IMG/VR virus record: IMGVR_UViG_2563366960_000006
Direction: 5' to 3' (one strand)
DNA: 22,262 nt
Origin: a virus
Lineage: Duplodnaviria; Heunggongvirae; Uroviricota; Caudoviricetes
This document shows, in pieces, positions 3,019-20,776 of this stretch (the first letter of the stretch is position 1; every line of letters begins with the position of its first letter). The translations under genes and the position numbers were made by a program. The notes under the pieces are model-generated. The model saw nothing but the letters and a program-made list of their open reading frames with translations. It had not been told where the DNA came from and ran no database searches.

Positions 3019-3689
3019 TGCTCTCCAAATACAAAACCAATTTCAGCCAGTGCTTCGTCCATTTTTTCGATGAACTCCGGCACCATCTCGTCAAAACTCG
3101 CCATGTACTTTTCATCCCGCTCAACCACGACATAATGCAGGCCTTCACGCTTCATTCGTGGGTCATAGTTGGCAAAGTACCAGGCATCTTTTCGTGTCAC
3201 CCACATGCTGTACTGCACCTGGGCCATGTAAGCCGACTTTATGGCCTCGAAACCACCGAGCCGGAACTTCATGAAATCCCGGGAGGTAAACGGGCATTTC
3301 AGCTCAAGGCCATTGCCGTCACTGCATAAACCATCGGGAGAGCAGGCGGTGCGCATACTTTCGTCGCGATAGATGATCGGGGATTCAGTAACATTCACGC
3401 CGGAAGTGAATTCAAACAGGGTTCTGGCGTCGTTCTCGTACTGTTTTCCCCACGCCAGCGCCTTAGCATTAACTTCCGGAGCCACACCGGTGCAAACCTC
3501 AGCCAGCAGGGTGTGGAAGTAGGACATTTTCATGTCAGGCCACTTCTTTCCTGAGCGGGGCTTTGCTATCACGTTGTGAACTTCTGAAGCGGTGATGACG
3601 CCGAGCCGTAATTTGTGCCATGCATCATCCCCCTGTTCGACAGCTCTCACGTCGATCCCGGTACGCTGCAGGATAATGTCCGGTGTCAT
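3009..3689 (-). CDS. exo: Lambda exonuclease (Red alpha), 226 aa
   Basis: Protein [65 protein letters not shown]... matches lambda Exo essentially throughout (recall). Confidence 0.95.
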
Positions 3690-4471
3690 GCTGCCACCTT
3701 CTGCTCAGTGGCTTTCTGTTTCAGGAATCCAAGAGCTTTCACTGCTTCGGCCTGTGTCAGTTCTGACGATGCGCGAATGTCGCGGCGAAATATCTGGGAA
3801 CAGAGCGGCAATAAGTCGTCATCCCATGTTTTGTCCAGGGCAATCAGCAGAGTGTTAATCTCCTGCATGGTTTCATCGTTAACCGGAGTGATGTCGCGTT
3901 CCGGCTGACGTTCTGCAGTGTATGCGGTATTTTCGACAATGCGCTCGGCTTCATCCTTGTCATAGATACCAGCAAATCCGAAGGCCAGACGGGCACACTG
4001 AATCATGGCTTTATGCCGTAACATCCGTTTGGGATGCGACTGCCACGGCCCCGTGATTTCTCTGCCTTCGCGGGTTTTGAATGGTTCGCGGCGGCATTCA
4101 TCCATCCACTCGGTAACGCAGATCGGATGATTGCGGTCTTTGCGGTAAATCCGGCATGTACATGATTCATTGTCCTGCTCAAAGTCCATACCATCAAACT
4201 GCTGGTTTTCATTGATGATGCGGGACCAGCCATCAACGCCCACCACCGGAACAATGCCGTTCTGCTTATCAGGGAAGGCGTAAATTTCTTTCGTCCACGG
4301 ATTAAGGCCGTACTGGTTGGCGACGATCAACAATGCGATGAACTGCGCATCGCTGGCATCACCTTTAAATGCCGTCTGGCGAAGAGTGGTGATCAGTTCC
4401 TGTGGGTCGACAGAATCCATGCCGACACGTTCAGCCAGCTTCCCTGCCAGCGTTGCGAGTGCTGTACTCAT
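3686..4471 (-). CDS. bet: Lambda Bet (Red beta) single-strand annealing protein, 261 aa
   Basis: Protein [128 protein letters not shown]... matches lambda Bet; ATGA overlap with exo. Confidence 0.95.
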
Positions 4472-4992: not shown

Positions 4993-5125
4993 TTTTTGGG
5001 ACTCCTGGCTGATTAAGTATGTCGATAAGGCGTTTCCATCCGTCACGTAATTTACGGGTGATTCGTTCAAGTAAAGATTCGGAAGGGCAGCCAGCAACAG
5101 GCCACCCTGCAATGGCATATTGCAT
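4961..5125 (-). CDS. cIII: CIII (FtsH inhibitor stabilising CII), 54 aa
   Basis: Not in the ORF track (under 60 aa). Hand translation from ATG at 5125 (SD AAGGAG) gives [54 protein letters not shown], stop at 4961-4963; overlaps kil by 32 nt as in lambda. Confidence 0.85.
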   Translation of the reverse strand: MQYAIAGWPVAGCPSESLLERITRKLRDGWKRLIDILNQPGVPKNGSNNYGYPD

Positions 5126-5197
5126 GGTGTGCTCCTTATTTATACATAACGAAAAACGCCTCGAGTGAAGCGTAATTGGTATGCGGTAACGCCGCGC

Positions 5198-5716: not shown

Positions 5717-6187
5717 CTAATAAAACACCCAGTTTTCTGTTTCTTGGTTGTGTCCAAAGTTATATTCAATATCTGGTGTTGATGTATCAATATTCTTCAT
5801 CCCATCAACAAGAGTTGATACAACAGCCAAATCTTGTTTGATTCTCATTAAATGGTATTTCTTCCGGCGCAATAAACTTTCAATGGCAAGTTTCTTCGTT
5901 GGGAATGCAAAAGATCTTTCTGCATTTTTTGCTACTTTCTTAATTGCATATCTATTTCTCTTTTGTTTCCATTCCTGTAACCACTGATTTGGTGCTGGTT
6001 TAAAATTAACAATCCAATGCGCAGGAACCAACCATGCATAATGCTCTGTCTGATGAAAAGCTATATATTGAAGTGCGAATATTTTGATTCCATCTTCTTC
6101 AACTGTCGCCTGGAATCTCCAGAAAACAGGCATTCCATCATGTTCAGTTTCTGATTCAGGAAAAGGTACGCTCCATGATTTTGTCAT
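5717..6187 (-). CDS. Hypothetical protein (156 aa), moron-like cargo at the ral/sieB position
   Basis: ORF with ATG at 6187 and SD GAGGTGA; Trp-rich N-terminal half and a strongly basic central segment (KQKRNRYAIKKVAKNAERSF...LLRRKKYHLMRIKQ). No motif I recognise. Flanked by terminator-like hairpins on both sides. Confidence 0.6.
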   Translation of the reverse strand: MTKSWSVPFPESETEHDGMPVFWRFQATVEEDGIKIFALQYIAFHQTEHYAWLVPAHWIVNFKPAPNQWLQEWKQKRNRYAIKKVAKNAERSFAFPTKKLAIESLLRRKKYHLMRIKQDLAVVSTLVDGMKNIDTSTPDIEYNFGHNQETENWVFY

Positions 6188-6232: not shown

Positions 6233-6261
6233 GCCAAAAATAAAGGCCGATTATGCGGCCT
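6233..6261 (-). terminator. Intrinsic terminator on the minus strand after the 207-aa gene
   Basis: Plus 6244-6261 AGGCCG-ATTATG-CGGCCT; on the minus strand the hairpin is followed by TTTATTTTTGG. The gene's stop codon (6251-6253) lies in the loop. Confidence 0.4.
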
Positions 6262-6874
6262 CGGAAGGAAGTCCAATCATCTTATTCAAATCTTCTACCC
6301 GTAAAGCAGGAAGTGCTGCACTTGCTTTATCTGCTTCTTTTGGTAGCAACTCTTTGCTTTCAGGCCAAACTTCAATAAGTCGCTTAACTGTTGTGACTGA
6401 GTTCAAAGCAGCCCATACATTTGATTCGATATCCTTTTTCTTGGCTTCAAGTTTTTGTTGCAATGCGCAGATTTCATCAAACCTTTTTGTTATTTCGTGT
6501 TCTGCGCTAAACATGCATTTATATTGGGTCGGAGTAGGGAGCAATATATCTTCGCCGTTGCCGTCTTTCCCATATGAAAGCCATCCAACCCTTCTGCCAG
6601 ATACAGTCAGATAAATTGATGCAGAACGAACATCGCATGAGCAAAATGAACATCCCAGTTTTTCAAGTTCTTCACTTATAGCTACTAACTTGGATGATAA
6701 CTGATCCACTTCCTCAGTTTTCTTTTTACCGCCAAACGCAATAACTCTGGCGTTAAGTGCAAGCTGGTTCTTTAACTTTGTTACTTCTTTAAGTTCAGTG
6801 AAAACCCCAGACTTAATTAAAGCGTTACGAGCGATTTCCTCTTTCATTCTCGTAGTTAAGCGGATTGATGACAT
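6251..6874 (-). CDS. Hypothetical protein (207 aa from ATG at 6874), first gene after N
   Basis: Track ORF extends to 6934, but ATG at 6874 has a good SD (GAGAGGAA) and avoids overlap with N. Predicted coiled-coil segments and a Cys cluster (GCSFCSCD). Sits where lambda carries sieB/ral. Confidence 0.6.
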   Translation of the reverse strand: MSSIRLTTRMKEEIARNALIKSGVFTELKEVTKLKNQLALNARVIAFGGKKKTEEVDQLSSKLVAISEELEKLGCSFCSCDVRSASIYLTVSGRRVGWLSYGKDGNGEDILLPTPTQYKCMFSAEHEITKRFDEICALQQKLEAKKKDIESNVWAALNSVTTVKRLIEVWPESKELLPKEADKASAALPALRVEDLNKMIGLPSEAA

Positions 6875-6885
6875 ATTAATTCCTC

Positions 6886-7185
6886 TCAAATAAGTTGTTT
6901 GCTGCCTAATTTTATTTTCTGGCGACCAACACAAGTCACACCCATTTCACTCCGTGGTTTCCGGTAGTAAATACGGTTCTGTTTACGCTCGACTTCTTCT
7001 GCCTTCTTGCAGCGAAGGCTTCCGAGTGATGCTGCTTTATCTGCTCTGACGCAACCAGAGAGCTTTAGCGCAATTTTTCGCGCCAGTCGCTGCTCTTGCA
7101 TTGCCTGTTCACGTTGAGCCTGTCTGCGTGCTCTGCGGCGATTTCTGGCGTTATCGTCAGCCAGATATGTAATGACTACTGTCAT
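6886..7185 (-). CDS. N: N-like transcription antitermination protein (99 aa from ATG at 7185)
   Basis: First gene downstream of pL/nutL; arginine-rich N-terminus (NARNRRRARRQAQREQ); C-terminus ...RIYYRKPRSEMGVTCVGRQKIKLGSKQLI resembles the lambda N C-terminus (...TWYSKPGERGITCSGRQKIKGKSIPLI). N-terminal ARM differs from lambda N. Confidence 0.8.
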   Translation of the reverse strand: MTVVITYLADDNARNRRRARRQAQREQAMQEQRLARKIALKLSGCVRADKAASLGSLRCKKAEEVERKQNRIYYRKPRSEMGVTCVGRQKIKLGSKQLI

Positions 7186-7291
7186 GTTGACCTCCGATGA
7201 TTGACTTTGGCGGTGACGCGCCGGGTGCTTATCTTCCGGTTGCCGTCGTGCAGCTGCACTTCGCGTCACCCCAAAGACAACTACTCTTTGG

Positions 7292-7599: not shown

Positions 7600-8310
7600 A
7601 AAACCCGGCACTGAGGCCGGGTTGTTATTGTGCACAGAAAACCCCCAGCTAGGCTGGGGGTTCCGGAAAGCTTTCAGCTTTGAGCCAGTTATTAAAACCC
7701 CTTTTGATTTGTTAAAACACCTTGCGGTCTGGCAACTGCAAGTGTCAAACAAGAAATCAAAAGGGGGTCCCAATGGGGAACGAAAAGAGCTTAGCGCACA
7801 CCCGATGGAACTGTAAATATCACATAGTATTTGCGCCAAAATACCGAAGACAGGTGTTCTACAGAGAGAAGCGTAGAGCAATAGGCTGTATTTTGAGAAA
7901 GCTGTGTGAGTGGAAAAGTGTACGGATTCTGGAAGCTGAATGCTGTGCAGATCATATCCATATGCTTGTGGAGATCCCGCCCAAAATGAGCGTATCAGGC
8001 TTTATGGGATATCTGAAAGGGAAAAGCAGTCTGATGCCTTACGAGCAGTTTGGTGATTTGAAATTCAAATACAGGAACAGGGAGTTCTGGTGCAGAGGGT
8101 ATTACGTCGATACGGTGGGTAAGAACACGGCGAAGATACAGGATTACATAAAGCACCAGCTTGAAGAGGATAAAATGGGAGAGCAGTTATCGATTCCCTA
8201 TCCGGGCAGCCCGTTTACGGGCCGTAAGTAACGAAGTTGGATGCAAATGTCAGATCGTGTGCGCCTGTTAGGGCGCGGCTGGTAAGAGAGCCTTATAGGC
8301 GCATTTGAAA
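7600..8310 (+). mobile_element. IS200-like insertion sequence (IS200/IS605 family); boundaries approximate
   Basis: Contains tnpA (7773-8231). Upstream are a terminator-like hairpin (7602-7623, then T-rich), a 10-bp stem-loop (7640-7662), and a long-range pairing between 7698-7710 and 7754-7766 that would sequester the tnpA SD (AAGGGGG), all as described for the IS200 left end. Exact termini not determined. Confidence 0.75.
7773..8231 (+). CDS. tnpA: IS200 transposase TnpA (Y1/HUH family, 152 aa)
   Basis: MGNEKSLAHTRWNCKYHIVFAPKYRRQVFYREKRRAIGCILRKLCEWKSVRILEAECCADHIHMLVEIPPKMSVSGFMGYLKGKSSL... matches IS200 TnpA (recall). ATG at 7773; the track ORF begins 51 nt earlier. Confidence 0.92.
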   Translation: MGNEKSLAHTRWNCKYHIVFAPKYRRQVFYREKRRAIGCILRKLCEWKSVRILEAECCADHIHMLVEIPPKMSVSGFMGYLKGKSSLMPYEQFGDLKFKYRNREFWCRGYYVDTVGKNTAKIQDYIKHQLEEDKMGEQLSIPYPGSPFTGRK

Positions 8311-8335: not shown

Positions 8336-8659
8336 TTATTTATGGAAAAACACTTCAAGTATTTTTGGGATTGCTGGTATGAGTTGTGAGGATACGACCG
8401 CACCTACAACCCATAGAATTATCGAAGTTTTCGCGTCGCTTACGTCTGATTTGGTTGCATAATTCGAGCGCATGACAGCCAGGTCGGTTTTCATTTGCTG
8501 AACATCTTTTTCGAGTTCTTTCACTCTTTGAAGCACATCATCACCTCCGCCATTGCCGCCACCATGCCGTGAGTATGCATCATCAGTGGGATAGTGTCCA
8601 ATTGGGCGAGATATGTTTTGATTTGGACGAAGTTGAGTAACCTTGTTATCTAAACTCAT
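8336..8659 (-). CDS. Small tail-anchored membrane protein (107 aa), second gene of a cassette replacing rexAB
   Basis: ATG at 8659. Gly-rich N-terminal region (GGGNGGGDD), predicted coiled coil (VLQRVKELEKDVQQMKTDLAVMRSNYATKSDVSDAK), C-terminal hydrophobic helix (SIILWVVGAVVSSQLIPAIPKILEVFF). Architecture resembles XhlA-type or holin-like small membrane proteins (by recall, not searched). Start overlaps the upstream gene by 14 nt. Confidence 0.65.
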   Translation of the reverse strand: MSLDNKVTQLRPNQNISRPIGHYPTDDAYSRHGGGNGGGDDVLQRVKELEKDVQQMKTDLAVMRSNYATKSDVSDAKTSIILWVVGAVVSSQLIPAIPKILEVFFHK

Positions 8660-9083
8660 CGCGAACTGATCCTGTTATCTTCACGTCAAAAAACGAACTT
8701 TTTACATCAATTACTTCGCCTTTCTCAGGATTAACCAGTGATGCTCTAACTTCGAATATCCCAGGCTTGATAATTTTCACCCTTGGGAAGTTAATTCTCA
8801 TAGAAGTTGATACGATGGTTTCTCCATCGTTGGCTTCTGCTACCGTAAAAAACTTATGGTTGGAGTACAGTTTTGTGTCAATTGGTATCGGTATTTCTTG
8901 AGCATTGAAAACCTCAATGCCTATGGAATATTTTTTTGTAGCCTTAAGGCCGATAAAAAAAGCGCCAAATGACAGATCCACTTCATGGGAGTCTTTATCC
9001 ATTTCATAGATAAGAACTGGAGTTACGGGGTTGCCTTCATCCATCGCAATCGGAATGATATAAGAAATACGTTCTTTAATCAT
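8646..9083 (-). CDS. Hypothetical soluble protein (145 aa), first gene of a cassette replacing rexAB
   Basis: ATG at 9083 lies 7 nt after the cI stop codon (9091-9093), same strand, no intervening terminator, so it should be co-transcribed with cI. No recognisable motif; low-GC composition. Confidence 0.65.
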   Translation of the reverse strand: MIKERISYIIPIAMDEGNPVTPVLIYEMDKDSHEVDLSFGAFFIGLKATKKYSIGIEVFNAQEIPIPIDTKLYSNHKFFTVAEANDGETIVSTSMRINFPRVKIIKPGIFEVRASLVNPEKGEVIDVKSSFFDVKITGSVRDEFR

Positions 9084-9090
9084 TTACGTG

Positions 9091-9807
<717 letters not shown>

Positions 9808-10804: not shown

Positions 10805-11752
10805 ATGAGCAATACAGCAAAAATCTACGATTTCAGCGCCGCACACGAGCGCAGGAGCAACAGGATGGAGAACCAGAAAACTGGTTACATTCCGTTGTAC
10901 CGGAGCATTCTGAAACAGTCATGGGCGAAAGATGTTTATCTTCGCACCCTGTGGGAAAACCTTCTCCTGAATGCCGCCAGAAAGCCATACAAAGCGAATT
11001 TCAAAGGTCATGAATGGCATCTGCAACCCGGTCAACTGGTTGTGACAGCAGCTGATTTAGGTCTTCAGTTATGCGACAGACATGGCAAGCCAGCAAGCCG
11101 TGATCAGGTTGAGCGGATGCTTCAGGTTTTTGTGAAAGAGGGGATGATCACCATTGATGGAGAGAAGCAAAAAGGTCGTGTGATTACCATAACAAATTAC
11201 CATGAATATGCTCAAAAAATGGACGACTCACCCGCACATGAAGCCGCACAAACAACCGCACATGATGCCGCACATGATGAAGCAAGTAATGGCGCGGCTT
11301 TCAGCGTACATGCCGCACATGAAAGCGCACATGAAGCCGCACAAACAACCGCACATCATGAACAAGAAGGTATTAACAAGAATATAAATAATACCCCCCT
11401 ACCCCCCAATGGGGGAGGCGATGGGCAGGTTAAACCTGAACGTCGCAAGGCAGAACGAATCGACTACGAATCCTTCCTGAACGCCTACAACACCGAAGTC
11501 GGTGACAGACTTCCACACGCTGTTGCGGTCAACGAGAAACGAAAACGCCGCCTGAAGAAAATCATTCCGCAACTGAAAACGCCAAACGTGGACGGTTTCA
11601 GAGCGTATGTCAGGGCGTTTGTGCATCAGGCCAAGCCGTTTTACTTCGGAGACAACGACACTGGCTGGACGGCAGATTTTGATTACCTGCTGAGGGAAGA
11701 TTCGTTAACGGGAGTACGGGAAGGGAAGTTTGCAGACAGGGGGATTGCATGA
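10805..11752 (+). CDS. O: O-like replication initiator (315 aa) with origin iterons inside the coding sequence
   Basis: Position after cII; N-terminus MSNTAKI... resembles lambda O MTNTAKI...; the central region is encoded by tandem 12-bp repeats followed by an AT-rich tract, the typical lambdoid O/ori arrangement; ATGA overlap with the helicase gene. Confidence 0.8.
11233..11396 (+). repeat. Putative replication origin: eight 12-bp iterons in two blocks, plus AT-rich tract
   Basis: Units CCGCACATGAAG / CCGCACAAACAA / CCGCACATGATG x2 (11233-11280), a 33-bp spacer, then CCGCACATGAAA / GCGCACATGAAG / CCGCACAAACAA / CCGCACATCATG (11314-11361), followed by AT-rich 11362-11396. They encode the [16 protein letters not shown]-type repeat within O. 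Confidence 0.6.
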
Positions 11753-13125
11753 GACAGGATATCGAAGCGAGCGTTATCGGTGGCCTGCTGATTGGTGGAT
11801 TAACGCCAACCGCCAGCGACGTTCTGGCAACGCTTGAGCCGGAAGCGTTTTCAATTCCGCTCTACCGGAAAGCCTTCGAGGTTATCCGTAAGCAGGCGAG
11901 AAACAGAAACCTAATCGACGCGCTGATGGTTGCCGAGGCGTGCGGAGAGGAGCATTTCACGTCAATCCTGATGACCAGCAAAAACTGCCCGAGTGCCGCA
12001 AACCTGAAGGGATATGCCGGAATGGTCGCGGATAACTATCACCGCCGCCTGGTGCTGGAAATCATGGATGAAATGCGTGAACCAATTCAGAACGGAACCA
12101 TCGATACATCGAGTCAGGCGATGGACGAGCTCGTAAAGCGTCTTTCAGCTATCAGAAAACCCCGTGACGAGGTTAAACCTGTACGGTTAGGGGAAATCAT
12201 TACTGACTACACTGACACGCTTGACAGGCGTCTGAGGAACGGAGAAGAGTCAGATACCCTGAAGACCGGAATCGAAGAACTTGATGCTATCACCGGAGGG
12301 ATGAACGCGGAAGACCTGGTGATAATCGCTGCTCGTCCTGGTATGGGGAAAACCGAACTGGCGCTGAAGATTGCCGAAGGTGTGGCAAGCCGCGTTATTC
12401 CTGGTTCTGACGTCCGGCGCGGGGTATTGATTTTCTCAATGGAAATGAGCGCATTGCAGATTGCAGAGCGAAGCATTGCCAACGCCGGGAGGATGTCGGT
12501 TAGCGTACTGCGAAATCCTGCATCGATGGATGACGAAGGCTGGGCGCGTGTTGCTAACGGCATGAGTCAGCTTGCAGATTTGGATGTATGGGTAGTCGAT
12601 GCCTCGCGGTTATCGGTCGAAGAAATACGCTCAATCGCAGAACGGCACAAACAGGAAAATCCAAACCTGTCACTCATCATGGCGGATTATCTTGGCCTGA
12701 TTGAGAAGCCGAAAGCAGACCGCAACGACCTCGCAATTGCTCACATCTCAGGAAGCCTGAAGGCGATGGCGAAAGACCTGAAAACGCCAGTTATCTCCCT
12801 GAGTCAGCTTTCGCGCGATGTTGAGAAGCGACCAAACAAACGCCCGACAAACGCAGATTTGCGTGATTCAGGAAGCATTGAGCAGGACGCAGACTCAATC
12901 ATCATGCTCTATCGGGAAGCGGTATATGACGAGAACAGTAGCGCCGCGCCATTTGCTGAAATCATCGTGACGAAAAACCGTTTTGGCTCGCTTGGTACGG
13001 TTTACCAGCGGTTCTGTAACGGACACTTTGTTGCATGTGACCAGGATGAAGCCAGACAGATTTGCACAGCATCAAATGCACCTGCTGCGCGTGGCAGACG
13101 ATATGCACAAGGGGCTGACGTATGA
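11749..13125 (+). CDS. DnaB-like replicative helicase (458 aa), P22 gene 12-type
   Basis: Walker A motif ARPGMGKT, DnaB-family organisation with a C-terminal RecA-like domain (motifs such as [16 protein letters not shown]). Occupies the position of lambda P. Confidence 0.88.
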
Positions 13126-15530: not shown

Positions 15531-15615
15531 AGTCAGAGATAACAATCAACTAATACTGTTTTGTTGATTTTTGCTTGTAATTGGCGTTCTGGTCTGATTT
15601 TTGTGGAGTAAGTTG

Positions 15616-15999
15616 ATGCGTGATATTCAGATGGTTCTTGAGCGTTGGGGTGCGTGGGCGGCTAATAATCATGAAGATGTGACCTGGTCGTCCATTGCCG
15701 CCGGTTTTAAGGGATTAATTCCTTCAAAAGTAAAATCTCGCCCGCAATGTTGTGACGATGACGCGATGATCATTTGCGGGTGCATGGCCCGTCTGAAAAA
15801 GAACAACAGCGATTTACACGATTTATTAGTAGATTATTATGTATGTGGTATGACATTCATGTCACTGGCAAGTAAGCATTGCTGCTCGGATGGTTATATC
15901 GGGAAAAGGTTACAGAAGGCTGAGGGCATAATTGAAGGGATGTTAATGGCATTAGATATCCGGTTAGATATGGATATCGTTGCTAATAATTCTAATTGA
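15616..15999 (+). CDS. Q: Q late-gene antiterminator, phage 82/DLP12 QuuD-type (127 aa)
   Basis: [75 protein letters not shown]... from ATG at 15616 with GGAG SD (track ORF starts at a TTG 15 nt upstream); Cys-rich zinc-binding region typical of Q82-family proteins. Confidence 0.8.
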
Positions 16000-16136
16000 T
16001 ATGCAATTGTTTACTAAAAGTTATTAAAAATGGGGCGTGGAAACGCCCCCAAAATAAAGGGTAATATATAACAGAAGGTTTATATAGTAAGAAGCAAGGT
16101 AGTGCTTCTAAAGGAAGTGGCTTGAGGGCTCCACTT

Positions 16137-16178
16137 ATATGTTGCGGAGGCAAAGCCTCCCGCAACATATCTTTTTCG
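16137..16178 (+). terminator. Strong intrinsic terminator on the plus strand downstream of Q (candidate tR')
   Basis: About 14-bp stem ATATGTTGCGGAGG-CAAA-GCCTCCCGCAACATAT (one bulged C) followed by CTTTTTCG; 140-180 nt downstream of the Q stop, the usual pR'/tR' geometry. Confidence 0.5.
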
Positions 16179-16187
16179 TAAGTCAGA

Positions 16188-17270
16188 TTAGAACTGATAA
16201 ACCAGACCTACAGCGACGATGTCGTCGGTATCAATACCAGCTGTTTTGGTAAACTTACTATCGTCAATTAAGTTGATTTTGTAATCAACAAAAGTGGACA
16301 TGTTTTTATTAAAGTAGTAAGTAGCACCGACATCGACATACTTGACTAAGTCTCGGTCACCATGAACACCAAGGTCTTTACCTTTTGACTGAAGGTAAGC
16401 AACAGATGGACGCAGACCGAAGTCAAACTGATATTGTGCTACTGCTTCAAAGTTTTGTGCTTTGTTTGCAATATGGTTATTACCAAAAACGGTCATATTC
16501 TGAGTTTCAGAATATGTGGTAGCCAGATAGATATTGTTCGCATCATATTTCAGGCCTGCAGCCCATACTTCCGCATTTTTGCCGGAGGCATTGAATTTGC
16601 TCTTACCATAGGCGACCTGACCGTCAGTGCGATCTGATTTAGCATAGGTTGCACCCACGCCGAATCCTTCATACTCATAAGTAGTGGAGAAACCGAAACC
16701 ATCACCATTGGCTTCAGTTACGTCAGTGCGGTCATTTTTACCCTGATACTGAGCAGCAAAGTTCAGGCCATCGACCAGACCAAAGAAGTCGTTGTTACGA
16801 TAAGTTGCAACACCAGTAGTGCGACCAGTCATGAACACATCTGTTTGGGTCCAGGTATCACCACCGAATTCTGGCAGAACGTCAGTCCACGCACCGATGT
16901 CGTATGCTACACCGTAGTTACGGCCGTAATCGATTGAGCCGTAATCACCAAATTTCAGGCCTGCAAATGCAAGACGGGTTTTGTCTTTGGAAGAACCTTG
17001 AGATTCAGCACGGTTGCCTTTGAATTCATATTCCCACTGACCGAAACCAGTCAGTTGATCGTTGATTTGGGTTTCACCTTTGAAGCCAAGACGGGCATAA
17101 GTAGTATCACCATCATCTGCATCATTAGAGGAGAAGTAGTGCTTGGCATTAACTTTCCCGTATAGATCCAGCTTGTTACTGTCTTTATTATAAATTTCAG
17201 CTGCCTGAGCAGACATCGCCATCAGTACTGATGCAGCTACAGCAGAAATTGCCACTGTTAATTTTTTCAT
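16188..17270 (-). CDS. nmpC: Phage-borne outer-membrane general porin (OmpC/OmpF/PhoE family; NmpC/Lc-type), 360 aa
   Basis: Signal peptide [23 protein letters not shown] then [17 protein letters not shown]..., porin PEFGGD motif, C-terminal ...VGLVYQF. ATG at 17270 (track ORF extends 60 nt upstream). Located between Q and the lysis cassette, as nmpC is in DLP12. Confidence 0.9.
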
Positions 17271-17696
17271 TGTACGCCCTTTTTTTGAACTATTATTAAA
17301 AAATGATGTCACTGCGCGATAAATATTCATCTAATCAATGTGATTATTTCAAGATGTAAGTTTTAGTTTCTCATTTAATTTGTGAAGTAGATCTCTATTT
17401 TTATCTGAACCTTTTCTATCTAATCCTATTCATGGCTCTTGTCTGAACAAAAATAAATCTATTAGCTAATTTATATTAATGGCACTTATTTATAAGTGCT
17501 CTATAATTCTTTAGCTTAATTTAAACAAACTAAAAATAACATCGGAAATTATTAACTGGTTATTTGTTGAAGTTTTCTTATGCATTTGTGGTGGTGTTTT
17601 GAACACTCGGTGGCATTCTCACAAATATCATTTAGTAGTTTACGTACGTAAAAAATTGGTTATGCTGTTAAGAGTGGTTACTTCGTCACACAGCTT

Positions 17697-17729
17697 AAAC
17701 CCGCCGTCGAGCGGGTTTTTCCATTTTTT
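17697..17729 (+). terminator. Intrinsic terminator on the plus strand upstream of the holin gene
   Basis: AAACCCGC-CGTCGA-GCGGGTTT (17697-17718) followed by TTCCATTTTTT. Confidence 0.4.
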
Positions 17730-17858: not shown

Positions 17859-18074
17859 ATGAAATCCATGGATAAGTTAACAACGGGTGTCGCCTATGGT
17901 ACCTCAGCAGGTAGTGCCGGGTACTGGTTTTTACAGTTGCTCGATAAAGTCACGCCCTCACAGTGGGCGGCAATAGGTGTGCTGGGTAGCCTGGTATTTG
18001 GCCTGCTGACGTACCTGACAAACCTTTATTTCAAGATTAAAGAAGATAAGCGCAAGGCTGCGAGAGGTGAATAA
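17859..18074 (+). CDS. S: Class II holin / pinholin (S21-like), 71 aa
   Basis: [71 protein letters not shown]; two TM segments; dual-start motif M1/M4 as in S21; TAATG overlap with the endolysin gene. Confidence 0.9.
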
Positions 18075-19060: not shown

Positions 19061-19354
19061 TTATTGTGAGCAATACACACGCGCTTCCAGCGGAGTATAA
19101 ATGCCTAAAGTAATAAAACCGAGCAATCCATTTACGAATGTTTGCTGGGTTTCTGTTTTAACAACATTTTCTGCACCACCACAAATTTTTGCTGCATCGA
19201 CAGTTTTCTTCTGCCCAATTCCCGAAACGAAGAAATGATGGGTGATGGTTTCCTTTGGTGTTACTGCTGTAGGTTTGTTTCCAACAGTAAACGTCTGTTG
19301 AGCACATCCTGTAATAAGCATTGCCAGAGCGGCAGAAAACAACATTTTTTTCAT
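19061..19354 (-). CDS. bor: Bor outer-membrane lipoprotein (serum resistance), 97 aa
   Basis: From ATG at 19354: MKKMLFSAALAMLITGCAQQTFTVGNKPTAVTPKETITHHFFVSGIGQKKTVDAAKICGGAENVVKTETQQTFVNGLLGFITLGIYTPLEARVYCSQ, near identical to lambda Bor (recall); lipobox LITGC. Confidence 0.9.
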   Translation of the reverse strand: MKKMLFSAALAMLITGCAQQTFTVGNKPTAVTPKETITHHFFVSGIGQKKTVDAAKICGGAENVVKTETQQTFVNGLLGFITLGIYTPLEARVYCSQ

Positions 19355-19834: not shown

Positions 19835-20161
19835 ATGAAAAGACGCCTTTTACTACTTTTTCTGTTATCTGTCCTGGCAGTGGGATGCTCGCAGCAAAAA
19901 GCTGATGAGCCCCGGCAATTAGTGACGGTGTATCCACGATATCCGGAATATGCTGCAGCAAATTATATCAAGGGGCTGGTTGAGGTTAAGTTCGATATTG
20001 GTGCTGATGGGACTGTGACACGGATCGTTTTTCTCCGCTCAGAGCCTCATAATTTGTTTCGTGATGAAGTGGTGAAGGCCATGGCGAAATGGCGATTTGA
20101 AAAGAATCGCCCCTGTCAGGGAGTGAAGAGACAATTTATCTTTACGCCGTCACGTCCTTGA
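19835..20161 (+). CDS. Putative lipoprotein with TonB C-terminal-domain-like region (109 aa)
   Basis: ATG at 19835 with AGGA SD; signal peptide plus lipobox (MKRRLLLLFLLSVLAVGC); mature part YPRYPEYAAANYIKGLVEVKFDIGADGTVTRIVFLRSEPHNLFRDEVVKAMAKWRF fits the TonB C-terminal domain pattern (recall). Confidence 0.55.
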   Translation: MKRRLLLLFLLSVLAVGCSQQKADEPRQLVTVYPRYPEYAAANYIKGLVEVKFDIGADGTVTRIVFLRSEPHNLFRDEVVKAMAKWRFEKNRPCQGVKRQFIFTPSRP

Positions 20162-20524: not shown

Positions 20525-20776
20525 TTATCGGTTTTGGCTACGCAGCATAGTACAAAACGGACAGGTGCATCCCGGGACGGGGGAGGCGTCACATGTCCCT
20601 GTGATGGTTGTTCCGGGTAATGTACTGTGTGGGGCATAAAAATGTCCGATAATTTTACTTTCTACCGCAGTTAGTTGATTCGTTGGTCCTGGTAGCACAT
20701 TGGGCGAGGATTTAAATGCCAGGCAACTGAAGGATGATGTCGCAAGGGAGATAGCGAGAATATTTCTGATTTTCAT
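20525..20776 (-). CDS. Hypothetical secreted Cys-rich small protein (83 aa)
   Basis: ATG at 20776 with AGAGG SD; N-terminal signal peptide (MKIRNILAISLATSSFSCLA); C-terminal Cys cluster (TGTCDASPVPGCTCPFC). Confidence 0.35.
   Translation of the reverse strand: MKIRNILAISLATSSFSCLAFKSSPNVLPGPTNQLTAVESKIIGHFYAPHSTLPGTTITGTCDASPVPGCTCPFCTMLRSQNR

Follow-up and report, generated by a model that had tools for sequence, protein, structure and literature searches.

An obvious question raised by this stretch of viral DNA (22,262 nucleotides, here called the window) is whether a porin gene lodged between the antiterminator gene Q and the lysis genes of a phage is a functional piece of phage cargo, which transcript it belongs to, and what it might do to a host that carries it. 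The window represents a lambdoid (pro)phage from integrase to terminase, with the tail genes lying outside it. It is a mosaic of modules, and no single genome or phage record searched covers more than 68% of it in one place. That an NmpC/Lc porin gene can sit beside the lysis genes of lambda-like phages is long known, and the copy in the window is intact. Descriptions of the Lc/NmpC system date back to the 1980s, and lysogenic conversion is the established role of Lc, the closest relative of the porin described here. The best explanation of our data, which we regard as very probable, is that the window carries an intact phage-borne NmpC/Lc allele in an autonomous cargo cassette between Q and the late promoter, with a predicted swap of porins in the lysogen. 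Added here to the known system are the delimitation of this cassette between Q and the late promoter, an IpeX-type RNA that travels with the cassette, and the observation that alleles differ mainly in predicted surface loops.

Identity and integrity of the porin gene

The open reading frame list of the window contains a minus-strand frame of 380 amino acids at 16188..17330. The porin coding sequence proper (16188..17270, minus strand; 360 amino acids plus stop) begins at an internal methionine at 17270. An AAAGGG ribosome-binding motif lies 6 nt upstream of this codon, the resulting signal peptide (codons 17202-17270; 23 amino acids, followed by mature AEIYNKD) agrees in every residue with the signal peptide that the PA-2 record J02580 annotates for Lc, and RefSeq places the start at the same methionine. 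As these observations agree, Met 17270 is the correct start, and the coordinates 16188-17270 proposed in an earlier note on this DNA are right. The protein has a Sec signal peptide with an A-x-A end and a mature start of the AE(I/V)YNKD type, which is common to all K-12 porins and the window porin, as well as the PEFGG motif of loop 3 at residue 133 and a C-terminus, VGLVYQF, that ends in phenylalanine. The Pfam family Porin_1 (PF00267) is matched over its full profile (1-337 of 337, E = 1.9e-151), the score with the NCBIfam OmpC subfamily model is 521 bits (cutoff 484), and solved chains of OmpC, OmpF and PhoE align end to end with E-values from 1e-137 to 1e-111 (the best OmpC structure, E = 5.8e-137, covers the whole mature chain).

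Neither a frameshift nor an internal stop nor an IS element is present in the coding sequence 16188-17270. The gene thus encodes an intact, full-length general porin of the NmpC/Lc/OmpD clade, just as the earlier note had described a full-length OmpC-family porin with an intact signal peptide and without IS interruption; the frameshift or truncation that it had considered damaging to its claim did not appear on precise alignment. From the 66% identity to OmpC structures, the protein would be expected to form a trimeric, water-filled channel in the outer membrane.

For placing the porin among its relatives, the NmpC reference was K-12 nmpC from which IS5 and one copy of the duplication had been removed in silico, and Lc was taken from the PA-2 record J02580. 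The alignment to NmpC, Lc and OmpD that the earlier note had suggested gave 91.9% identity over aligned residues to both NmpC and Lc (90.7%, i.e. 331 of 365 columns, with gaps counted) and 80.6% to Salmonella OmpD (about 79% to OmpD clusters), whereas K-12 OmpC, OmpN, OmpF and PhoE reach only 62.9-67.7% (OmpC 66%). It is this gradation of identities, from about 92% for NmpC/Lc through OmpD down to the chromosomal porins, on which the assignment to the NmpC/Lc/OmpD clade rests. Within this clade, OmpD of Salmonella enterica is a Salmonella porin according to the sources, whereas the gene in the window is phage cargo with phage flanks and other loops. It is also a different allele from nmpC, 90.7% identical to the reconstructed protein. 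Moreover, K-12 nmpC carries IS5 after codon 346, flanked by a TTAG target duplication, and no porin is made from it, whereas the window gene is uninterrupted.

RefSeq lists the gene as ompC and its product as ‘porin OmpC’ (WP_000737271.1, the same accession in IHE3034 and CFT073). Could it then be no phage cargo at all, but the host ompC gene or a paralogue of chromosomal origin? This label and the score above the cutoff of the NCBIfam OmpC subfamily model would speak for such a reading. However, the protein is only 66% identical to K-12 OmpC as against 92% to NmpC and Lc, the gene lies between Q and the holin gene in a (pro)phage whereas K-12 ompC adjoins micF and rcsD, and isolated phages carry it as well. 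Synteny and identity have already refuted this reading, and we give it virtually no chance. With 66% identity and a prophage location outside the ompC-micF-rcsD locus, the gene is not an orthologue of chromosomal ompC, and the RefSeq name reflects a subfamily-level NCBIfam model without orthology to ompC. In clinical genomes, this name can confuse analyses of porin loss.

The cassette and its position relative to late transcription

On its left, the porin gene has as its neighbour a Q antiterminator gene of the QuuD/Q933 type (15616..15999, plus strand; Pfam Phage_antitermQ, E = 6.7e-54), the product of which is 81% identical over 120 amino acids to Q of phage 933W; in RefSeq genomes it is named quuD. 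On its right, the first lysis gene encodes a holin of the phage-21 S type (17859..18074, plus strand; Pfam Phage_holin_2_1, E = 2e-35; essD in RefSeq), followed by genes for an endolysin (lysozyme) and Rz and by an antisense Bor/Iss lipoprotein gene. Both flanking genes had been correctly recognized before. The order Q-porin-holin-endolysin-Rz-Bor/Iss is common to the window, DLP12, PA-2 and IHE3034. In the DLP12 (qsr') prophage of K-12, it takes the form Q(quuD)-porin-essD-rrrD-rzpD-bor with the same flanks, and in PA-2 the lc gene is placed and oriented in the same way with respect to the lysis genes.

Comparison with 933W delimits what has been inserted here. Homology to this phage falls into two blocks, window 15614-15975 and 17636-17720, and the gap between them measures 59 nt in 933W but 1660 nt in the window, which defines a porin cassette of 1.66 kb (15976..17635) between Q and the late promoter. 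It comprises the last seven codons of Q, the 3' UTR with its terminator, the porin coding sequence and the porin promoter region. Its GC content is 39% (28% in its 5' flank), compared with 49% in the lysis genes and 46% in the whole window. The cassette thus separates elements that are direct neighbours in related phages and has a promoter, a terminator and a base composition of its own, so that the designation ‘moron’ in the earlier note was well chosen. Its place in the slot between Q and the lysis genes, its orientation on the opposite strand, a conserved promoter with a CRP site and its own terminator also mark it as a cassette of the NmpC/Lc type. Overall, the porin gene belongs to a self-contained cargo cassette that brings along its promoter region with a CRP site as well as an IpeX-type UTR and a terminator. 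The same slot is occupied by another antisense gene, encoding a lipocalin, in other phages whose Q is related; when these phages were compared with the window in search of a shared qut element, no significant similarity was found outside Q, and the C-termini of the Q proteins differ.

An important question is on which side of the porin gene late transcription begins. The annotation of 933W shows Q immediately followed by pR', qut and a terminator, yet this block does not align to the region adjoining Q in the window. Rather, its homologue is found beyond the porin gene, where window 17636-17720 aligns with 933W 20663-20746 (78% identity over 85 nt, E = 1e-14). This places the late promoter pR' at 17639..17666 on the plus strand (-35 TTTACG at 17639-17644, a 16-nt spacer and -10 TATGCT at 17661-17666), as the homologue of the annotated 933W promoter. 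At the same alignment position as in 933W, and by homology only, a qut-like element follows at 17680..17687 (plus strand; ACTTCGTC versus ACATTGCC in 933W). The tR' intrinsic terminator, detected by the terminator scan, lies at 17697..17729 (plus strand; stem 17697-17718 plus T-run, with a predicted folding energy of -12 kcal/mol) and is matched in the alignment by the first terminator that the 933W record lists behind pR'. In DLP12, the pR'/tR' block likewise lies between porin and holin. A further promoter candidate at 17479-17507 (ATGGCA, 17-nt spacer, TATAAT, with a palindrome in the spacer) was dropped, as 933W homology puts pR' at 17639-17666.

As the 933W-homologous pR' and tR' (17639-17729) are situated between porin and holin, the porin gene lies outside the Q-dependent late transcript. 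In this arrangement, the porin gene is convergent with Q and divergent from pR', and the late transcript does not cross it. The earlier note had thus been right in placing the porin between Q and the lysis cassette, in the opposite orientation, whereas its tR' beside Q has to be moved to 17697-17729, and its notion of a porin antisense to late transcription does not hold.

What could nevertheless suggest a porin gene inside the late operon, silenced or modulated by antisense transcription from a pR'/tR' directly after Q, is that both 933W and lambda have their late promoter directly after Q and that a strong, bulged plus-strand hairpin followed by CTTTTT is found at 16137-16180, just before the porin stop codon. 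We consider this arrangement very improbable. The pR'-qut-terminator homology to 933W lies beyond the porin, and a scan found no promoter-like site between Q and this hairpin. Phage cdtI shares the window only from 17665 onward, i.e. the terminator and the lysis genes. In addition, the experimentally studied regulatory fragment of the DLP12 lysis operon begins among the codons of the porin signal peptide and extends in the direction of essD. On 933W homology, the hairpin at 16137-16180 was rejected as tR'; it may stop read-through from Q, and on the opposite strand it is the first hairpin of IpeX. The published numbering of the DLP12 fragment (-121 to +650) would correspond to another plus-strand start near 17319, attributed to RpoE by the title of the paper cited for it. 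This leaves the geometry unchanged, since both starts lie beyond the porin.

Like the window porin, stx of 933W and bor and lom of lambda are cargo located beside the region of Q, late promoter and lysis genes. However, stx follows pR' on the late strand and shares the transcript of the late genes, whereas the window porin is located upstream of pR', is read from the other strand and has its own promoter. This suggests a gene built for expression in the lysogen rather than upon induction, and the location between Q and its own late promoter suits such expression.

Promoter, IpeX-type 3' UTR and probable expression in the lysogen

The porin promoter region (17271..17469, minus strand) is homologous to the K-12 PnmpC region (-199 to -1) and is about 95% conserved with both DLP12 and PA-2. 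A CRP-binding site is predicted by identity at 17378..17398 (minus strand), which matches misc_binding 1363-1383 of J02580 with no substitutions, and both CRP sites annotated in the PA-2 record are identical in the window. In K-12, the 199 bp upstream of nmpC contain an active sigma-70 promoter, even with the interrupted nmpC copy, and deletion of -199 to -1 abolishes nmpC-driven transcription (PMC11677980).

At the other end of the cassette, the stretch from the stop codon to the intrinsic terminator (16022..16187, minus strand; terminator stem 16032-16049 plus U-run, by scan and fold) is the equivalent of the small RNA IpeX. In DLP12 and PA-2, IpeX likewise corresponds to the stretch from porin stop codon to terminator, with about 165 nt in the window compared with the 167 nt reported. 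According to reviews, IpeX is made from the phage porin promoter within the porin transcript, is then processed, and represses OmpC and OmpF (PMC12197685, PMC5069750). The K-12 and PA-2 stretches are identical to each other, and the window UTR agrees with that of K-12 in 157 of 167 aligned columns (94%). Although the five-hairpin layout predicted for IpeX is kept, two of the ten differences from the tested IpeX shorten predicted stems, so that IpeX-type activity of the window UTR is not assured. No Rfam family matches the UTR stretch. This IpeX-type 3' UTR had been absent from the earlier note.

The closest evidence for expression comes from CFT073, which has the same prophage with a porin coding sequence identical base for base to that in the window. 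We equate this CFT073 copy (1420007-1421089) with c1560 on the basis of gene order relative to sitABCD, as it lies about 31 RefSeq genes before sitD. In a 2025 study, RNA and protein of nmpC/c1560, as well as those of a second nmpC gene (c2348) and of two further porin genes, were reported to be made preferentially at 37 °C, a temperature at which ompC is lower (PMC12890032).

These observations bear on the possibility that the gene, though intact, is silent—as quiescent as nmpC in laboratory strains—and passively carried along with no effect on the lysogen. Owing to IS5, K-12 nmpC is indeed unexpressed as a porin, and the copies interrupted by IS1 or IS5 in some genomes suggest that the gene is sometimes dispensable or costly. 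Yet the window has conserved and undamaged versions of the reading frame, the signal peptide, the promoter region, the CRP site and the terminator, in K-12 the promoter still works although nmpC itself is interrupted (PMC11677980), the identical CFT073 coding sequence is reported to be expressed at 37 °C as RNA and protein (PMC12890032; c1560 identified by position), and alleles at least 99% identical are kept in 1225 genome records. Altogether, silent carriage seems improbable to us.

By analogy with PA-2 Lc, DLP12 IpeX and CFT073, a lysogen would transcribe the cassette from its own promoter, independently of phage repression, and the porin would be exported and inserted into the outer membrane. 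If the relatives are a guide, the 3' UTR would be processed to an IpeX-type RNA that lowers the synthesis of host OmpC and OmpF. The net result would be a swap of porins, by which permeability is kept but the loops shown to phages, colicins and antibodies change. Such a swap could exclude phages that have OmpC as their receptor. A precedent is provided by PA-2, which uses OmpC as its receptor and the Lc-mediated porin swap of which excludes superinfection.

Which part of the cassette has been selected is a related question. Its selected function might be the IpeX-type 3' UTR RNA that lowers OmpC and OmpF, with the porin merely restoring permeability and having no specific role in surface display. 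An RNA from the porin transcript controls the production of OmpC (and OmpF) according to secondary literature (PMC12197685, PMC5069750), and the UTR is 94% conserved compared with about 80% DNA identity in the 3' half of the coding sequence. On the other hand, amino acid changes cluster in predicted surface loops, which suggests that the exposed protein, too, is under selection. Such a primacy of the RNA appears possible, though distinctly less probable than not; it is compatible with the data and overlaps with our best explanation more than it competes with it.

Allele structure, surface loops and distribution

Compared with nmpC and lc, the porin gene has a composite structure. Its first ~480 nt are nearly identical to both. 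Over the following ~600 nt, identity drops to 53-88% in bins of 60 nt (about 80% overall, also with respect to lc alone), and beyond the coding sequence the 3' UTR is back at about 94% identity. This succession of a near-identical 5' part, a divergent stretch of ~600 nt and a conserved 3' UTR indicates a mosaic, recombinant gene. At the protein level, the signal peptide and the first ~125 mature residues match those of PA-2 Lc except for R99H. Beyond this part, substitutions cluster in L4-L8, and indels in the predicted loops L4 and L5 leave the window porin five residues shorter than Lc.

An AlphaFold model generated from 27 homologues was applied to strand and loop boundaries only, since its mean pLDDT is 64, with block means mostly between 65 and 85 over residues 170-360, where the variation lies. 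At moderate confidence, it shows 16 main barrel strands and a short N-terminal piece. The predicted extracellular loops contain 24 of the 31 positions substituted relative to NmpC/Lc as well as both indels, an enrichment with an odds ratio of 8 (Fisher p = 3.5e-7) that has to be read with the approximate boundaries of a moderate model in mind. The changes affect mostly L4, L5, L6 and L8, and their clustering is plain in the alignment itself. Thus, the allele appears to differ from NmpC and Lc almost only in the predicted loops L4-L8, which fits selection on the exposed surface. Together, the mosaic gene and the loop-restricted variation fit an arms race, but do not show one.

A further-reaching idea is that lambdoid phages carry porin alleles matched to their own receptor specificity. 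A prophage would then lower OmpC and OmpF via its IpeX-type RNA and install L4-L8 loops that escape recognition both by phages of its own type and by porin-dependent competitors. We regard this as a rather unlikely extension; if it were true, porin loop alleles and tail receptor-binding proteins should co-vary across E. coli. More generally, phage-borne porins alter both the display of the bacterial surface and passage across the outer membrane. In extraintestinal pathogenic E. coli, where the exact allele of the window is common, a porin swap bears on phage therapy (through receptor availability), on colicin and antibiotic uptake and on immune recognition.

In terms of distribution, the window gene is an ordinary one, as it is very common in E. 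coli: the porin gene alone has matches in 3140 of 5426 complete genomes, and CFT073 is among the 1225 E. coli genome records with an allele at least 99% identical. Many extraintestinal pathogenic strains, among them IHE3034, ABU 83972, APEC O18 and relatives of UTI89, have the 2.6-kb segment from Q through porin to holin with 100% identity. Many genomes also contain 41-nt remnants of the porin 5' end, which were rejected as boundary markers as they sit in an unrelated degraded prophage. Among isolated lambdoid phages, ev017, ev207, 2G7b, Perceval and several PhiR phages encode a 100% identical protein, and plaque-forming phages are included in this group. Relatives of the porin occur in 42 phage records, among them PA-2 (lc), a 434 derivative with a DLP12 substitution and P7, and in several phage records the phage porin gene bears the label ‘OmpD’.

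Antisense cargo after Q and its loss

The position taken by the porin gene, directly downstream of the antiterminator gene Q, is filled differently in other phages. In Lambda_ev087 and IdasGreatGrand an antisense gene of 525 nt (minus strand; 3551-4075 in locus L011 and 3550-4074 in locus L010), which is named lipocalin Blc in the Lambda_ev087 annotation, replaces the porin directly after a related Q, and a terminator-like hairpin on the plus strand directly precedes it. Antisense cargo seems to have a general landing site in this slot after Q. In the window, a 15-bp bulged hairpin followed by CTTTTT on the plus strand (16137-16180; -22 kcal/mol, z -4.4) sits just outside the porin stop codon, and on the minus strand the same sequence forms the first stem of the IpeX-type 3' UTR of the porin gene. 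This hairpin could have a double role, as an RNA structure within the sRNA and as a barrier that halts read-through from Q.

The porin gene can also be lost. In many E. coli genomes, e.g. that of E. coli HUE1 (locus L012, 3501-3541), it is reduced to its first 41 nt, which are 100% identical and adjoin ybcM-ybcL-emrE within a degraded remnant that resembles DLP12 and lies close to fliE and yedK. The 41-nt sequence is a scar of porin loss. At the same end of the intact gene, an in-frame ATG located 60 nt 5' of the porin start (17271-17330, minus strand) yields a mechanical ORF of 380 aa, and porins of 380 or 385 aa are annotated in several database entries, e.g. PhiR63_2 and clusters P0004-P0016. 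This longer form would bury the signal peptide and is probably a start-codon mis-annotation.

Possible rightward transcription signals near the porin gene

The distal 'CRP site' of the 1986 record of the PA-2 lc gene (J02580, 1067-1087) has an identical counterpart at 17673-17693 of the window, where, lying between the -10 element and tR' of the late promoter, it falls on the initial transcribed, qut-like region. The site assigned to CRP in PA-2 may in reality belong to the Q-utilisation region. The fragment numbering (-121 to +650) published for the DLP12 lysis operon implies another rightward start, near 17319 (plus strand), which would be some 50 bp away from the porin ATG and overlap the porin 5' leader. 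Upstream of this position (about 17285-17319, plus strand), GAACTA and TCACT are separated by a 16-nt spacer, an arrangement that by its sequence looks sigma-E-like and fits the cited paper's title. Should this start be real, it faces the porin promoter head-on.

Further cargo and modules of the window

A second antisense cargo gene lies directly 3' of Rz and encodes a Bor/Iss serum-resistance lipoprotein (19061-19354, minus strand; Pfam Lambda_Bor, E 1.1e-30; iss in RefSeq); the gene after it encodes a small protein that has a TonB C-terminal domain (19835-20161, plus strand; E 7.3e-13).

Whereas the closest relatives carry the lambda O/P pair, the window has an O-like initiator and a DnaB-type helicase (10805-13125, plus strand; Pfam DnaB_C, E 8.9e-78), and this difference in the replication module is one reason why no single genome matches the window over its full length.

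In the early-left region, a 227-aa protein (6251-6934, minus strand) strongly matches Nmad5, 'nucleotide modification associated domain 5' (E 1.7e-68), and its neighbouring minus-strand ORFs (5717-6187, 6886-7269, 8336-8659 and 8646-9083) have no Pfam match. The latter two adjoin the cI-like repressor gene (9091-9804) and, since they occupy the place of rexAB in lambda, are possible exclusion or defence cargo. A full-length Rfam match to STnc490 RNA (7640-7763, plus strand; 146 bits) is placed directly at the 5' end of a transposase gene of the IS200 family (7722-8231, plus strand; Pfam Y1_Tnp, E 2.7e-36); together they are an IS200-type insertion within the prophage's immunity/early-left region. 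Also present, in complete form, is the lambda cIII thermoregulator RNA element (5080-5138, minus strand; Rfam RF01804, 88.5 bits).
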